Shown: one piece after another, positions 52,764-58,505 of the stretch
Layout of the letters: each line of letters starts with the position of its first letter
Numbering within the stretch: position 1 is the first letter of the stretch
Source of the DNA: Terriglobia bacterium
GTDB lineage: Bacteria > Acidobacteriota > Terriglobia > JAJPHL01 > JAPKYU01
NCBI GenBank assembly: GCA_965223005.1
Contig: CBDCVK010000008.1
Coordinates: 128,001-192,000 of the forward strand
Length of the DNA stretch: 64,000 bases
Reading direction: 5' to 3'
Position numbers and translations under genes: made by a program
Notes under the pieces: model-generated
The model's database searches: none
What the model saw: only the letters and a program-made list of their open reading frames with translations
Told to the model about the DNA's origin: nothing

Positions 52764-53999
52764 ATGAACGCAGAAATTATTGCCGTGGGCTCAGAACTGT
52801 TGGGGCCGCACCGGCTAGACACCAATTCCCTGTTCATCACCAACCAGCTGAATCGCCTGGGCATCGAGGTTCGGCAGAAAACGGTGGTGGGCGACGACGA
52901 AGCACAGATTGCGGCTGCCATGGGCGCCGCTCTCGAGCGCGCCGAGATCGTGGTGGTGATGGGCGGATTGGGACCCACCGCCGACGACCTCACTCGCGAA
53001 AGCGTGGTCCGCCTGCTGGGCAGGCGGCTGTCTCGTGACGCGCGCGTCGCCGAAGTGATCGAGAAGCGCTTCCGCACTCGCGGCTTCACTATGCCGGAGA
53101 TCAACCTTCGCCAGGCCATGATCCTGGAAGGCGCCGAGATCCTGGAAAATCCAAGAGGCACCGCTCCCGGCCAGTGGATTCAGGAAGGCGGCCGGACTCT
53201 GATGCTGCTGCCCGGCGTGCCTTCCGAAATGGAAGCCATGTTTGAGCGGCAGTGCCTGCCTCGACTGGAGAAGATCGCGCCCGGCCGGCGGTTGCTCACC
53301 CGGGTGTTGAAAATCGCCGGCCTTTTTGAGTCGCAGGTAGACGAGCTGGCGGCGCCCATCTACCGCAAGTATGAGAACCCGACGACCACCATCCTGGCTG
53401 CACCCGGGGAAATTCAGTTGCACCTGCGGGCCGCTGGGTCCGACGAAGCGGAGGCCCGCGGCGCCCTCAACGATTTGGCTTCCCGTCTGGAATTGGCTTT
53501 CGGCGACAACATCTTTTCCCAAGATGGCCAGTCGATGGAAGAAGTGGTTGGCATGTTCCTGACGATGAAAAGCAAGACGCTCGCGGTGGCGGAAAGCTGC
53601 ACAGGCGGGTTGCTGGCGGAACGCATGACGCGCGTTCCGGGAAGTTCCCGTTATTTTCTGGGAGGGCTCGTAGCTTACCAGAACGAGGTCAAAACGCGCT
53701 GGCTGGAGGTGCCAGCCTCGGTGCTGGAATCCAACGGGGCCACCAGCGGAGAGGTGGCGCGCATCCTAGCCGAATCCGTGCGGCGGCGCTTTGGAGCCGA
53801 CTTCGGACTCAGCATCACTGGAATCGCCGGGCCTTCCGGCGCTACCGAGGCCAAGCCGGTGGGACTGGTCTACCTGGCACTGGCGGAAGCCGGCCGCGCA
53901 GGCGAGGTCATCGAGAAGCACTATCCGGGCACGCGAGACCGCATCCGCCTTCAGGCCACCCAAACCGCCCTGGACATGCTCCGCCGCCGGATCAAATAG
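52764..53999 (+). CDS. cinA: Competence/damage-inducible protein A (molybdopterin-binding-like + PncC)
   Basis: AEIIAVGSELL; GGLGPTADDLT; GTAPG; AVAESCTGG; ITGIAGP. Confidence 0.96.
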   Translation: MNAEIIAVGSELLGPHRLDTNSLFITNQLNRLGIEVRQKTVVGDDEAQIAAAMGAALERAEIVVVMGGLGPTADDLTRESVVRLLGRRLSRDARVAEVIEKRFRTRGFTMPEINLRQAMILEGAEILENPRGTAPGQWIQEGGRTLMLLPGVPSEMEAMFERQCLPRLEKIAPGRRLLTRVLKIAGLFESQVDELAAPIYRKYENPTTTILAAPGEIQLHLRAAGSDEAEARGALNDLASRLELAFGDNIFSQDGQSMEEVVGMFLTMKSKTLAVAESCTGGLLAERMTRVPGSSRYFLGGLVAYQNEVKTRWLEVPASVLESNGATSGEVARILAESVRRRFGADFGLSITGIAGPSGATEAKPVGLVYLALAEAGRAGEVIEKHYPGTRDRIRLQATQTALDMLRRRIK

Positions 54000-54076
54000 C
54001 CAGTTTCCGGTGTCCGGCCACAGGTGCCAGGTTTTGTAAGGAATTGGCGTGAGACCTGCAAGCTGACCCCTTCCTT

Positions 54077-54628
54077 ATGCGGTTGTTCGTGGCCCTGGAG
54101 TTGGATGAGGCTGTCCGCTCGCGGATTACCGCCCTGCTGCGCCAACTGGAGCCGGCGGTTCGCCAAGTCAAGTGGGTGAAGCCGCAATCGCTGCACCTGA
54201 CGCTCAAGTTCATTGGCGAGCAACCGGAAGACAGATTGCCAGCCCTGGTCGAAGCGCTGGCGGGCGTGCCCGCGCCCGGGCCGCTGGAACTCGGTTTCCG
54301 CGGGTTGGGCTGTTTTCCCAATGAGCGCCACCCCCGTGTCTTCTGGGTGGGCGTGCTGGCGCCGCCGGCCTTGGGCCAACTCGCCGCCGGGGTCGAGCGG
54401 GCCTTGGCGCCGCTGGGGATTGACCCCGAGCAGCGTCCATTCTCTCCTCACCTGACCCTGGGCCGGCTGAGGCAGGGCAGCCGTCTTCCAGTCTTGCCGC
54501 CGGAATGGGAAGTCCACCGCTCCGAGGATCTCGGCCGCTACACGGCAACGGAACTGTTCCTCTATCAGAGTCGGCTTTTTCCTCACGGTGCTGAATACGT
54601 CAAGCTGAAGCATTTCCCCTTGGAATAA
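54077..54628 (+). CDS. thpR: RNA 2',3'-cyclic phosphodiesterase (2H family)
   Basis: MRLFVAL; two HxT motifs (LHLTLKF, PHLTLGR). Confidence 0.95.
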   Translation: MRLFVALELDEAVRSRITALLRQLEPAVRQVKWVKPQSLHLTLKFIGEQPEDRLPALVEALAGVPAPGPLELGFRGLGCFPNERHPRVFWVGVLAPPALGQLAAGVERALAPLGIDPEQRPFSPHLTLGRLRQGSRLPVLPPEWEVHRSEDLGRYTATELFLYQSRLFPHGAEYVKLKHFPLE

Positions 54629-54814
54629 CCACTGGCCAATCTGTTTCTCGTTGCGGTGCCAACCCCGGAAGGATTTCCCCGCCCGGTGTTCCGCCAAGGC
54701 GTCCTACCGGCAAGACGTCCCGGAGGACACGCTTTGCTCTCCGACAGTTCACCGGAGAACCGTCCTGCCGCCTGCCGGGACCCGCCTGGTAGGCGCTTGC
54801 TCAATAGCCCAAAG

Positions 54815-54882
54815 GTACCAAGCAGAATGTAACTGTTCTCCTATTGGCTGCTTGCTGTCGCTGCGTTTAACTAGACACTGTT
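54815..54882 (+). promoter_or_regulatory. Duplicated promoter block, copy 1 (TTGGCT-N17-TTAACT plus upstream conserved box)
   Basis: Gapless 55/68 match to 56864-56931; directly precedes the small-ORF ATG. Confidence 0.6.
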
Positions 54883-55059
54883 ATGAAGGCAACAAAGACC
54901 CAAGCCATGGCGGCGCTGTTCTGTGCGGTTGTTGCTGCACGGAAGAGCCGCAGAAGTCTGCCGGAGTTCTTACGGATTCTCCCGTTGAGTCCGGAGATGA
55001 AATCTATGGCGCTGAAGAGCTATCGAGGCGTATTTGAATCAGCTGGATTGGAGCCATGA
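54883..55059 (+). CDS. Small protein (58 aa) of unknown function, paralog 1; not in the ORF track
   Basis: MKATKTQAMAALFCAVVAARKSRRSLPEFLRILPLSPEMKSMALKSYRGVFESAGLEP; ATGA overlap with the next gene; synonymous-biased divergence from paralog 2. Confidence 0.75.
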   Translation: MKATKTQAMAALFCAVVAARKSRRSLPEFLRILPLSPEMKSMALKSYRGVFESAGLEP

Positions 55060-56690
55060 GCGGCACGAAACAACCCAAAGTCCTCGTCATTGACGATGAC
55101 GAGCAGATGCTGACCATCGTCCGGAAAATACTGGAAGGTGAGGGCTTGGCCGTTGACGTGGCGCAGTCGGCCCGTGAAGCGTTGGACCGCTTGCCTGAAA
55201 ATGGCTACAACGCCATCCTCTGCGACATGTTGATGCCGGGGATGTCGGGCGCAGAGTTCTACCAGCAGGTGAAAAAGGAATTCCCAGAGTACAAGCGCCG
55301 GATTGTGTTCCTGACGGGCGATATCGCCTCGGAAGCTACCTGGGAGTTTATTGAGCAAAGGCATTTGCCTTACGTTTCGAAGCCCTTCGGAGCTCGCGAG
55401 TTGCACCAGAAGCTGCGGGAGTTGGTCGGAGAGCCGGCTTCTGCAGCCAGCTCGCCCGAGAAGCCGAAGAACACCCGGCGGCATCGGCGGATTGCGATCA
55501 AGGCTGCCATTCGGGTGCGCAAGAAGAGATGGGCCACCGACGGCCCCGAGATTACCGTGGCCACCAACGTCAGTAAAGAAGGCGCTTACTTCCTCAGCAA
55601 CCGGCAATACCGGGTCGGCACCGAGGTGCTGGTTTCGTTTCCCTACACCGGCCCGCAGGATGCCGAGCAGGAAGGCTGCGTGGTGCGGGCGGACGAAGAT
55701 GGGGAAGGCCGATGGGGTGTGGCCATCGCCCTGGGTCCTGCGGCCCTGGCCTTCCGCTCCGGACTGGCTGGCGGGCCCGAAGAGCGCCGGCGCCACCGCA
55801 TCCTGGCCATGGCCGACCTGTCTGGCCAGAGGCCCCTTCCCCGCGCTGGCAATGAGAAAGAGGCCGACCTTGCTGACCTGGAACGGACGGTGGAACGCGA
55901 GCGGGAAGAGGCTCGCCGCCTCGCCGAGCAGCTCACCGACGTGAACGCCAGCCACGAGCGTGTGGCTGCCCAGCGCGATCACCTGGCCGCCGAGGAGACG
56001 CGCCTCAACCTGCAGTTGCGTGAGCTCACGGCCGCCAAAGCCACGCTGGGTCAGGTGACCGAAGAGCTCAAGCAGCAGATGGAGACGCTGCAAAAGCAGC
56101 TGGCGGTCAGCGAAGGTTACCGCTTCCAGGCCACGCACGATTCTCTCACCGGGGTTTGGAACCGCGCAGCGATCCTGGACATTCTGGGCGGGGAACTGGA
56201 GCGCGCCAAGCGCGAGGGAATCCCTGTAGGGGTTGTGCTGGCCAACCTAGACCATTTCAAGGCTATCAACGACACATACGGGCATCTGGCCGGCGATGCG
56301 GTGTTACGGGAAACTGGCCGCAGAATGGCTTCCTCCGTACGGCTGTATGACTCGGTCGGCCGCTATGGAGGAGAAGAGTTCCTGATTGTCCTCCCAGACT
56401 GCGATGCCACCAGCACGCTGAACCAGGCCGAGAGAATTCGAGCCTGCCTCAGCAACGAACCCGTGCACACCCGGGAGGGTCAGATCTCCAGCACCATGAG
56501 TTTGGGGGTGGCCGTCGGAAGCGAGGAGGACGAGATGGAAACCCTCCTGCGCGCTGCCGATGCCGCGTTGTACCGGGCCAAGCGTGCAGGCCGCAACCGT
56601 GCCGAGGCGGCCACGGCTATGGAAGCCGCTGCGCCACATTTGCTTGCAAGTGAGGCCCCCCAGGGGGTGAGCAAGGATGGACAGGCCTGA
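55056..56690 (+). CDS. REC-PilZ-coiled coil-GGDEF diguanylate cyclase
   Basis: VLVIDDD, CDMLMPGMSG, KPF; RRHRR + NVSKEG; HDSLTGVWNR; RLYD I-site; RYGGEEF; ADAALYRAKRAGRN. Confidence 0.92.
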   Translation: MSGTKQPKVLVIDDDEQMLTIVRKILEGEGLAVDVAQSAREALDRLPENGYNAILCDMLMPGMSGAEFYQQVKKEFPEYKRRIVFLTGDIASEATWEFIEQRHLPYVSKPFGARELHQKLRELVGEPASAASSPEKPKNTRRHRRIAIKAAIRVRKKRWATDGPEITVATNVSKEGAYFLSNRQYRVGTEVLVSFPYTGPQDAEQEGCVVRADEDGEGRWGVAIALGPAALAFRSGLAGGPEERRRHRILAMADLSGQRPLPRAGNEKEADLADLERTVEREREEARRLAEQLTDVNASHERVAAQRDHLAAEETRLNLQLRELTAAKATLGQVTEELKQQMETLQKQLAVSEGYRFQATHDSLTGVWNRAAILDILGGELERAKREGIPVGVVLANLDHFKAINDTYGHLAGDAVLRETGRRMASSVRLYDSVGRYGGEEFLIVLPDCDATSTLNQAERIRACLSNEPVHTREGQISSTMSLGVAVGSEEDEMETLLRAADAALYRAKRAGRNRAEAATAMEAAAPHLLASEAPQGVSKDGQA

Positions 56691-56863
56691 CTTCATGAAG
56701 ACGCAATCCCATCTCGATCATGTTCTTTGCCGTGCCGGCACCCGCGAGCCTGGCCAAGCTGCGCCACCGATCCCCCGGTAGCGTAGCCCTGCTCGCATGG
56801 TGGAGACCCGCCACCAGCCAGCCATAATTCCCACCTGCTGGGCGCGCGCCCGCTAGTCCGAAA

Positions 56864-56931
56864 GTACCAAGCAAAATGTAACTGTGGGGCTATTGGCCAT
56901 TTGCTGCGGCTCCGCTTAACTAGGCACTGTT
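56864..56931 (+). promoter_or_regulatory. Duplicated promoter block, copy 2 (TTGGCC-N17-TTAACT plus upstream conserved box)
   Basis: Gapless 55/68 match to 54815-54882. Confidence 0.6.
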
Positions 56932-57102
56932 ATGGACAGCACAAGAACTCAAACGACCCAGACCATGGCGGCGCTGTTTTGCGCGATGGTTGCGGCACAG
57001 AAGACCCGCAGACCCCTCCCGGAGTTTCTGCGGATTCTCCCGGTGAGGTGCGCGATCAAGTCCATGGCACTGAAATCTACGCCAATGAGGTTTACGTTAT
57101 GA
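56932..57102 (+). CDS. Small protein (56 aa) of unknown function, paralog 2; not in the ORF track
   Basis: MDSTRTQTTQTMAALFCAMVAAQKTRRPLPEFLRILPVRCAIKSMALKSTPMRFTL; ATGA overlap with the ATG at 57099. Confidence 0.75.
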   Translation: MDSTRTQTTQTMAALFCAMVAAQKTRRPLPEFLRILPVRCAIKSMALKSTPMRFTL

Positions 57103-58505
57103 GCCATGCGAACCCAATGTCGAACTTGAGTACCCTGCCGGCCACCGAGGCCGGTCTGGTTGAAGGAGCTACTATGAGCCTAGTCACTACTGACGTGGTG
57201 TCCCCTGCGAACCCTGCCTCATTTCCACAGGAGGCTTTCGCTCAGTTTGCCCCCCGGCCCCAGGGGGCCGAAGGCGAGCCATCGGAGTCGGATCAGCATT
57301 TGTCTCCTCTGGATGCCATTGCTGGCCTGTCGGCGATTCAAGACAGGTTGCAGCAACTGGAACGGAGAGATTGGCGGGTCTGGTCAGCGGCCCTCGCGGT
57401 GCTGCTGCTGATGGGGACCGTGCTTGCACTCTCCTCAGCGCCCTTCTGGACACAGTTTTCCATCGTGCTGCTTTTCAGCGGCTATGCCGTAGCCCAGCAG
57501 CTGGTGAGCAGACGAATCCGGCATGAGCTGTCCCGGCAGGTTGATTCGATGTTGCTGTCCCAGCAGATTGACTCGGTCTTCAACCTGAAATTCCGGACCG
57601 AGGATTCTCACCAGCTGGCGATGCTGGATCCCGTCACCGGACTGTACAACCGCAGCTTCCTCGAGGAGCACCTATCTACCGAGCTGGCCCGATCCCAGAG
57701 GGAGGAAAATTCACTCGCCGTGGTGGCGCTGCATCTGAAGGACTTCGCGCAGATCATCGACTCCTACGGACGCTCGGCCGGCGATCTGGTGCTGAAGCAT
57801 TTTGGCGCACAACTCAAGAAAGCGATCCGAAACTCGGATTTTGCCGCGCGCACAGGCCAGGATGAGTTCATGGTGTTGTTCCCCGAAGGCAGACCCGAGC
57901 AGGTGCCGGTCACGCTTCCCCGCATGGCGGATCTGGAAGTGGACTTTCGTGCGGAGAAGATTCCAGTCAGCTTTGTTTCTGGGTGGACCGCCTATCAACC
58001 TGGCGACTCCCCCGGCCAGCTCTTGGATCGTGCCGAGCAGGCGGTTCTTGCCGACAAGCCAACCGGGCCGGCCGAGCCGGAGACCCTGGTGGCCCTAAGC
58101 GCAACCGCTCCTGCTGAAGAAGAGGGAGTCGCTGAGGCGCCTGGTATGCAGGCTGGCCCACAACCTGAACCAACTGCTGATACTGAGCAAGCCGAGCAGA
58201 CGGTTTTGGCCTACAAGCCACCCAGCGAGGCCGAGCCGGAGGTCCTGGTGGGCCTAAACGCAGTTTCTTCCGCTGCCAAAGATGAAGTCGCTGGGACACC
58301 TGGCATGCAGGCTGACCCACAACCTGAACCAGCTGCTGACGCTGGTCAAAGGGTACGCCGAGCTAGTGCCAGATCAGCTAAGCCGGGCCGCTCCGCTACG
58401 CGGCGACGTAGAGTAGTACCTGCGACCGCTCCGGTAGGTGAATTCGCTGCTCTGGCGGCTGCTGCTCTAAAGCCGGGGCCCAGCGATGAACCTCAAAGTG
58501 CTTGA
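57099..58505 (+). CDS. Membrane-anchored degenerate GGDEF domain protein with low-complexity tail
   Basis: Two TM helices; LDPVTGLYNR; RNSD I-site; RTGQDEF; start reassigned from TTG 56901 to ATG 57099. Confidence 0.85.
   Translation: MSHANPMSNLSTLPATEAGLVEGATMSLVTTDVVSPANPASFPQEAFAQFAPRPQGAEGEPSESDQHLSPLDAIAGLSAIQDRLQQLERRDWRVWSAALAVLLLMGTVLALSSAPFWTQFSIVLLFSGYAVAQQLVSRRIRHELSRQVDSMLLSQQIDSVFNLKFRTEDSHQLAMLDPVTGLYNRSFLEEHLSTELARSQREENSLAVVALHLKDFAQIIDSYGRSAGDLVLKHFGAQLKKAIRNSDFAARTGQDEFMVLFPEGRPEQVPVTLPRMADLEVDFRAEKIPVSFVSGWTAYQPGDSPGQLLDRAEQAVLADKPTGPAEPETLVALSATAPAEEEGVAEAPGMQAGPQPEPTADTEQAEQTVLAYKPPSEAEPEVLVGLNAVSSAAKDEVAGTPGMQADPQPEPAADAGQRVRRASARSAKPGRSATRRRRVVPATAPVGEFAALAAAALKPGPSDEPQSA
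58032..58345 (+). repeat. Diverged 159-bp (53-aa) intragenic duplication
   Basis: AEQAVLADKP...PGMQAGPQPEPTAD (58032) versus AEQTVLAYKP...PGMQADPQPEPAAD (58191). Confidence 0.85.

Follow-up and report, generated by a model that had tools for sequence, protein, structure and literature searches.

Within a 64,000-nucleotide stretch of the genome of a Terriglobia bacterium of the phylum Acidobacteriota (assembly GCA_965223005.1, contig CBDCVK010000008.1, positions 128,001 to 192,000, hereafter called the window), two small open reading frames (ORFs) of fewer than 60 codons stand directly ahead of genes for GGDEF-domain proteins, the domain of diguanylate cyclases, which make the second messenger cyclic diguanylate (c-di-GMP). 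From comparisons of their copies across related genomes we conclude that these small ORFs are real genes of an undescribed, lineage-restricted protein family, and that their reading frame is translated and selected as protein. On balance, each is probably the near-leaderless and translationally coupled first cistron of a portable promoter cassette, and encodes a functional protein of three helices. The association with c-di-GMP belongs mainly to the upstream module of this cassette, which is separable from the small ORF and of which the small ORF is a frequent first cistron.

Small ORF A (54883-55059, forward strand, 58 amino acids) has no Shine-Dalgarno sequence and is followed by partner A (55056-56690, forward strand), a diguanylate cyclase of 544 amino acids with the architecture REC-PilZ-coiled coil-GGDEF and a GGEEF signature (Pfam Response_reg 1e-22, PilZ 1.8e-6, and GGDEF 2.9e-45). 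Small ORF B (56932-57102, forward strand, 56 amino acids) is followed by partner B (57099-58505, forward strand), a membrane protein of 468 amino acids with a GGDEF domain (Pfam 5.4e-31, residues 174-323) that is degenerate, its signature in the translation being GQDEF. The stop codon of each small ORF overlaps the start codon of its partner as ATGA, at 55056-55059 for the A pair and at 57099-57102 for the B pair. An earlier note on this DNA had described two ORFs below the length cutoff with a shared core, the ATGA overlaps, and partners of the REC-PilZ-GGDEF and transmembrane degenerate-GGDEF types, all of which were recovered at both loci and agree with the Pfam matches and translations. 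Specifically, 29 of the 38 core residues are identical and nine differ, and a recount returned the 11 identical residues (of the 29) that the same note had found to be written with different codons, including TTA/CTG and AGC/TCT. The DNA similarity between the two loci runs on for about 105 nucleotides (nt) 5' of the first ATG, at the same level as within the ORF, which the earlier reader had not remarked on.

The differences between copies follow the frame of the small ORF. Across the 38-codon core of ORFs A and B there are 6, 6, and 16 nucleotide differences at codon positions 1, 2, and 3, and the proportions of differing synonymous (pS) and nonsynonymous (pN) sites are 0.50 and 0.16 in the ORF frame (Fisher p = 7e-4), as opposed to pS/pN values of 0.19/0.26 and 0.16/0.27 in the two other frames. 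A total of 21 copies were examined, six from the window's genome (3.24 Mb in 10 contigs) and the rest from four related genomes, of which three share its genus and one represents another genus of the family. The selection test was carried out with summed Nei-Gojobori estimates on 16 of them, which represent 15 distinct core DNAs. Five degenerate copies were left out: two in which the family match ends about halfway along the core, beyond which the frame continues through unrelated residues, one with a deletion of 17 nt, one that reads through into the next gene, and one that is divergent. Among the 15 distinct cores, the ratio of nonsynonymous to synonymous substitution rates (dN/dS) was 0.29 in the ORF frame versus 1.23 and 1.49 in the shifted frames, and the variable columns numbered 32 of 38 at third codon positions, 17 at first and 16 at second positions. 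The synonymous codons in which the earlier note had seen the signature of selection on this frame reflect purifying selection, with a ratio far below 1. Comparison of orthologs from the window's genome (G000) and a genome of the same genus (G003) gave dN/dS values of 0.18 for ORF A and 0.27 for partner A, and of 0.28 for ORF B and 0.59 for partner B. Between genera, ORF A retains 73% identity with saturated synonymous sites (pS 0.78), and partner A retains 58%. Furthermore, the reading frame is preserved by the insertion/deletion found between the first and second ATG, since it is 9 nt long.

The family is small and narrowly distributed. A collection of 5.8 billion proteins, in which the gene callers behind the public data predict the small ORF, holds 16 clusters of it, all of 40-65 amino acids and none named or carrying a Pfam domain. 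A profile search of 1.84 billion representatives retrieved 18 sequences at E <= 0.001, divergent members included, with no genuine fusion to a larger domain, as the four longer matches were read-throughs or repetitive sequence. A database protein of 188 amino acids (P0029) contains four tandem stretches of about 20 residues that resemble the family core (F-C-G-A-V-V-T-G-Q-G-S-R-R-K-L-P-D-F-L-R); these may be a translated tandem DNA repeat of another organism. When genomes were searched with the profile, the family was detected in 5 of the 11 genomes of the order and in 9 of the 401 genomes of the class, namely the window's own, four of the six others of its family, and 4 of the 14 genomes of one other family, whose members form a distant branch. 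No member was found in the remaining families of the class among these 401 genomes. The two window ORFs matched no family in Pfam, NCBIfam, or PHROGs, and 26 members searched against Pfam at E <= 10 returned a chance match alone (IGF2_C in two members, best E = 0.058). Likewise, a sequence profile search of the PDB reached a best E of 0.2 with unrelated proteins, Foldseek against the PDB returned nine matches (best E = 6.4, TM-score <= 0.39), and the ESM Atlas gave no usable match to the small protein. The earlier reader, who did not recognize the family, is joined in this by the databases. A search of the literature (full text, supplementary files excepted) retrieved no description of a family of small ORFs that precede diguanylate cyclase genes in Acidobacteria.

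The proteins of 45-65 residues share an alanine-rich first helix with a nearly invariant Phe-Cys, a basic stretch, and a conserved L-R-I-L-P turn, and their conservation is highest in the N-terminal and middle parts and lowest next to the stop codon. An AlphaFold2 model built from 24 sequences (mean predicted local distance difference test score 77) consists of three helices at residues 3-22, 26-32, and 37-46; it has a basic patch, and a turn of four residues separates helix 2 from helix 3. A first helix of the lipoprotein or transmembrane kind was ruled out, as read from the alignment, by a hydrophobic run of just 12 residues and by the Phe that precedes the Cys. An RxxxR motif like the one with which PilZ proteins bind c-di-GMP is not conserved: copy A has R-K-S-R-R, but copy B and roughly half of the family have Q in place of the first arginine.

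The similarity upstream of the two ORFs belongs to a repeated module of about 130 nt. Nine copies were found in the window's genome with a nucleotide profile (E <= 2.4e-21), and BLAST retrieved 11 and 6 copies in two genomes of the genus; a marginal tenth match in the window's genome (C10:523665-523708, E = 0.007) bears no clear relation to a gene and was excluded from the counts. Six of the nine modules are followed by a small ORF (one of them degenerate), one by an ORF remnant, and two by no small ORF. An alignment of 23 copies from five genomes revealed a common layout: a sharp 5' edge and a GC-rich stretch are followed by the box GTACC-N-AATGTAACTGT, by CTATTGGC, by about 17 nt that differ freely, and by TTAACT (TAATCT in the other genus), with the ATG 6-10 nt further on. 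The box, a candidate regulator site, is at least 90% conserved over the 23 copies, and its pattern has two matches in the window as opposed to none in 100 shuffles. The pair TTGGCY and TTAACT around a variable 17-nt spacer is present in 21 of the 23 copies, and suggests that the module is a promoter of the sigma-70 type. Ahead of ORF A, the promoter-like module begins about 105 nt before the ATG (54779-54882, forward strand; nhmmer match C8:182779-182905, E 1.8e-34) and contains an exact match to the box (54815-54836), a putative -35 hexamer TTGGCT (54844-54849) in a conserved block that precedes the spacer, and, again in a conserved block, a putative -10 hexamer TTAACT (54867-54872) 10 nt before the ATG. 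The module ahead of ORF B (56829-56931, forward strand; nhmmer match C8:184829-184954, E 6.8e-35) has the box at 56864-56885 and the putative hexamers TTGGCC and TTAACT at 56893-56898 and 56916-56921. Two other promoter types were considered. A sigma-54 promoter in TGGC...TTGC was ruled out by eye, as the GG-GC spacing is about 8 instead of 12 and the second element is not conserved, and GTAAC as a -35 element of the extracytoplasmic function type was ruled out for want of a conserved partner at 16-17 nt.

The 10-12 nt that precede the ATG read AGACACTGTT or AGGCACTGTT and hold no GGAG-like core, unlike the downstream genes of the same loci, which are preceded by GGAG. Because the ATG lies 10 nt after the putative -10 hexamer and lacks a Shine-Dalgarno sequence, the mRNA is probably leaderless or nearly so. 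Such an mRNA is plausible in this phylum, given that 9.7-19.4% of genes are predicted to be leaderless in three Acidobacteria genomes (PMC3160421, Table 2). At two loci an FHA gene has its start codon exactly where the ATG of the small ORF lies elsewhere, and one relative has a GGDEF paralog fused to the ATG of the module, which argues that the module supplies both promoter and start codon.

Behind the nine modules of the window's genome stand partner A, partner B and its GQDEF paralog, three PilZ proteins, a REC-ParA/MinD protein of the TadZ/CpaE type, a sigma-54 activator without a receiver domain, and an FHA membrane protein (assignments by Pfam). Six of these nine genes carry GGDEF or PilZ, in a genome that has 15 GGDEF and 23 PilZ matches in total. 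The nine genes make up seven distinct gene families, and since several are paralog pairs, the nine copies are not nine independent events. In relatives, a single-domain response regulator and a cyclic nucleotide (cNMP)-binding protein are added to the genes behind the cassette. The small ORF itself precedes not only GGDEF genes but also PilZ, REC-ParA/MinD, and sigma-54 activator genes, and in a relative a cNMP-binding gene. The earlier note had proposed a repeated cassette made of a promoter, a microprotein, and a GGDEF gene. The repeated cassette is there, but it is not specific to GGDEF genes, as the PilZ, TadZ, sigma-54, and cNMP genes demonstrate, and in the survey of downstream genes no more than 3 of the 15 GGDEF genes of the window's genome had it. 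It is because the module also occurs without the small ORF, and because the small ORF precedes genes other than GGDEF, that we assign the c-di-GMP theme mainly to the module. In the distant branch, six loci were inspected and the listed ORFs include no GGDEF or PilZ gene, with two downstream proteins scanned against Pfam (one without a family, the other with a sub-threshold match to FecR).

The history of partner A points in the same direction. Its full-length homologs at about 50% identity number well over 100, and the small protein has far fewer, which makes the small ORF a lineage-specific addition. The names of these homologs point to Acidobacteriota/Terriglobia. In a third genus the module precedes the partner A ortholog in the absence of a small ORF of this family, and a paralog in the window's genome has neither module nor ORF and follows a gene read as a histidine kinase (no Pfam check). 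Two further observations concern the surroundings of the cassette. Another PilZ gene (G000:C9:115094-115366) lies directly upstream of the cassette copy on contig C9, at the contig end. In a relative (G003:C2:1140947-1141060) the small ORF continues in frame into a cNMP-binding protein of 214 amino acids (cNMP_binding 4e-17), which is either a true fusion or the result of a lost stop codon.

Taken as a near-leaderless, coupled first cistron on a portable promoter cassette, the small ORF would work as follows. The module of about 130 nt would be a promoter with an upstream box for a shared regulator, a -35 element TTGGCC, a variable spacer of 17 nt, and a -10 element TTAACT, from which a leaderless or near-leaderless mRNA would start with the ATG 10 nt past the -10 element and without a Shine-Dalgarno sequence. 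A ribosome that ends the small ORF would restart at the overlapping ATGA, or 13-14 nt further on, and this restart would make the output of the signaling gene depend on how the small ORF is translated. With the module copied ahead of their genes, diguanylate cyclases, PilZ receptors, a TadZ/CpaE-like pilus protein, a sigma-54 activator, and an FHA protein would share a common control and form a regulon for c-di-GMP and surface behavior, within which the small protein would act in trans as a regulatory subunit or adaptor. As to the coupling step, ATGA overlaps occur in 10 of the 21 copies, the copy of the other genus included, and three TadZ-type copies have a gap of 13-14 nt between ORF and partner; the remaining copies have longer gaps or decayed sequence in between. 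These arrangements are consistent with translational coupling of the small ORF to its partner. Some transcript data are available from one public RNA library run, which gave five contigs; the parts of the stretch that they leave uncovered carry no information. One of them, 168 nt long with one mismatch (56999-57166), bridges the junction of ORF B and partner B, a weak hint that the two are co-transcribed, and a second, also with one mismatch, lies within partner A.

Several points weigh against this reading. First, the copies are related to one another as paralogs and orthologs and bear signs of gene conversion, so that the counts in the selection test are not independent, and the core is only 38 codons long; moreover, 5 of the 21 copies are degenerate, their frame lost or truncated. 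Second, two of the nine modules work without a small ORF, which means that at least some cassettes can do without the small protein. Third, a scan with the sigma-70 consensus did not call the hexamers, and TTAACT agrees with TATAAT at three of six positions, so that the promoter is one that we infer. Fourth, the RNA data are contigs that display no 5' starts and may include carry-over of DNA, and another contig, with eight mismatches, covers the putative promoter itself (56774-56920); this contig is probably derived from another copy or strain. Finally, no known fold or family resembles the small protein, and this leaves no handle on its function.

A narrower version of the proposal concerns what the small protein does. 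The small proteins could be regulatory subunits diversified among paralogs, in which the three-helix core docks on an element shared by the network (e.g., the regulator that recognizes the box in the promoter, or c-di-GMP) and the partner-specific C-terminal tails hold each copy to whichever cyclase, PilZ, or pilus protein shares its mRNA. Four ORF-partner pairs (A, B, TadZ-type, and PilZ-type) are orthologous in three to four species of the genus, and each of the four ortholog groups has its own conserved C-terminal tail. Complex prediction for the small protein with full-length partner A, from alignments of 23 and 50 rows, scored 0.00 twice, a result that counts neither for nor against binding. 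We put the idea of diversified subunits forward tentatively, as a possible but doubtful refinement.

Among the other explanations, the one that survives best is a leader peptide acting purely in cis, whose translation or nascent-chain stalling would gate the next gene and which would have no function once released. The position as first cistron, the missing Shine-Dalgarno sequence, the ATGA overlaps in 10 of 21 copies, and the two of nine modules that dispense with the ORF would all suit such a peptide, as would the leaderless short ORFs that come first in mycobacterial operons, for which 10.1101/834739 describes an attenuator function. The distribution of conservation, however, is the opposite of that in known arrest peptides, being concentrated in the N-terminal and middle parts and weakest at the stop. 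In addition, across genera the small protein diverges less than its partner, some members of the distant branch have no tightly following gene (with gaps of several hundred nt), and neither the folds and consensus folds nor the consensus scan yielded an attenuator or terminator structure. A leader peptide is therefore an account that we would give a minor chance, well behind a functional first cistron.

It is less probable still that the small protein is a DNA-binding autoregulator, that is, a minimal helix-turn-helix protein that binds the conserved box of its own module and sets the level of the regulon. The predicted structure invites this idea through its three short helices, the four-residue turn between helices 2 and 3, and the basic patch, and so do the conserved box upstream of every copy and the fact that several paralogs share the same module for their expression. 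Yet none of the nine Foldseek matches is a helix-turn-helix protein (best E = 6.4), no helix-turn-helix family appeared for the 26 members in Pfam at E <= 10, and no PDB sequence matched below E = 0.2. The box, as read from the alignment, is neither an evident palindrome nor a helical-phase repeat. We consequently regard autoregulation as unlikely.

The spread of the cassette raises the question of a mobile element, of which the small ORF would be a remnant or cargo, for instance an excisionase-like gene of a cassette moved by a recombinase or transposon. The sharp common 5' boundary and the variable 3' end (at the ATG, after the ORF, or some 50 nt into the REC gene behind the ORF) would fit this origin, as would ORFs near two loci that resemble tyrosine recombinases (by eye, no Pfam test). 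Decayed stubs of the REC start of partner A, about 15 codons long, follow the small ORF at G000:C3:79503-79610 and G000:C9:114686-114761, and are themselves followed by unrelated genes, PilZ in one copy and the sigma-54 activator in the other. These stubs show that the partner A locus was the source from which the cassette was copied, its 3' end varying from copy to copy. A tract of 1289 bp that is 99.3% identical between the window (56827-58115) and another contig (G000:C2:253434-254722) also begins at the 5' edge of the module, and comprises module B with small ORF B and about 340 codons from the start of the GQDEF gene. As both paralogs also exist in a relative, they are old, and the tract suggests recent gene conversion or duplication between them. 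Against an element stand the four ORF-partner pairs, which are stably orthologous across three to four species, and the lack of a PHROGs or Pfam match; terminal inverted repeats or target duplications were not noticed in the alignments, in which no formal search for them was made. Furthermore, insertion sequence (IS) elements in a relative interrupt modules and do not carry them. In that relative (G001:C1:191384 and G001:C4:832886), a module-PilZ unit and a module are cut by IS transposase genes, as judged by eye. A mobile origin of the small ORF appears decidedly improbable on this evidence.

Lastly, that the ORF is incidental to duplicated regulatory DNA or to a structured 5' leader RNA such as a riboswitch is hardly credible: the similarity does extend 5' of the ORF at an unchanged level and the module does exist without it, but the synonymous excess is specific to the frame, no relevant Rfam family was found in 53500-58500 (E = 1), single-sequence folds of both leaders were no better than shuffles (z = -0.88 and -0.75), and the consensus folds gave an ORF region without covariation and an empty module structure on both strands. 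The Rfam scan (E <= 1) returned just two irrelevant matches, a togavirus frameshift element and a sub-threshold Twister-sister match. The latter (54311-54405, reverse strand, 24 bits versus a gathering score of 34, E = 0.069) lies inside a gene that resembles LigT/2'-5' RNA ligase (thpR-like) and is probably due to chance.

Annotation systematically overlooks small proteins, of which very few have been tied to second-messenger signaling. The YmgB/AriR-type connectors of E. coli are small helical proteins that modulate signaling enzymes, and the small protein described here is likewise all-helical in its predicted structure and found in a biofilm and c-di-GMP context. The likeness is one of analogy only, as the searches found no solved structure that resembles our protein in sequence or fold. 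Riboswitches for c-di-GMP (GEMM-I/II) stand upstream of GGDEF, EAL, and pilus genes, and share with the module the placement of a repeated, conserved element before several c-di-GMP-related genes per genome. Unlike them, the module has no Rfam match and forms neither a stable nor a covarying structure, and the stretch that is conserved codes for protein.

The closest known kind are the leaderless short ORFs that head mycobacterial operons. According to PMC4633059 and 10.1101/834739, these are also short unannotated ORFs without a Shine-Dalgarno sequence that begin at the transcript start, directly ahead of a longer gene that they can gate. On the other hand, the mycobacterial ORFs mostly bear no relation to one another or are sensors of low complexity (poly-Cys), whereas here there is one conserved family with a predicted fold, repeated six times per genome on a shared module, and subject to purifying selection no weaker than that on the partner enzyme; the leaderless start, for its part, is a prediction here. 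Coupled upstream ORFs in bacterial leaders, according to PMC13285730, have in common with the small ORF a stop/start overlap, and their downstream initiation depends on upstream translation. They differ in having their own ribosome-binding site and in being specific to a locus, as opposed to a multi-copy family without a Shine-Dalgarno sequence.

The range of the family is narrow, covering two families of one class, and its value is moderate until a binding target has been shown experimentally. Within this range, the small ORFs represent a selected multi-copy small-protein family of uncultured soil Acidobacteriota that is linked, via one reusable cassette, to c-di-GMP, pilus, and sigma-54 genes. 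They offer a defined candidate regulon for c-di-GMP and surface behavior in a phylum with almost no genetics, together with concrete proteins and DNA boxes for experiment. The cassette would also be a natural example of a portable promoter combined with a probably leaderless start and a first cistron. If the small proteins are indeed subunits diversified among paralogs, then their combination with the near-leaderless cassette would amount to a lineage-specific, modular wiring of a whole second-messenger regulon.

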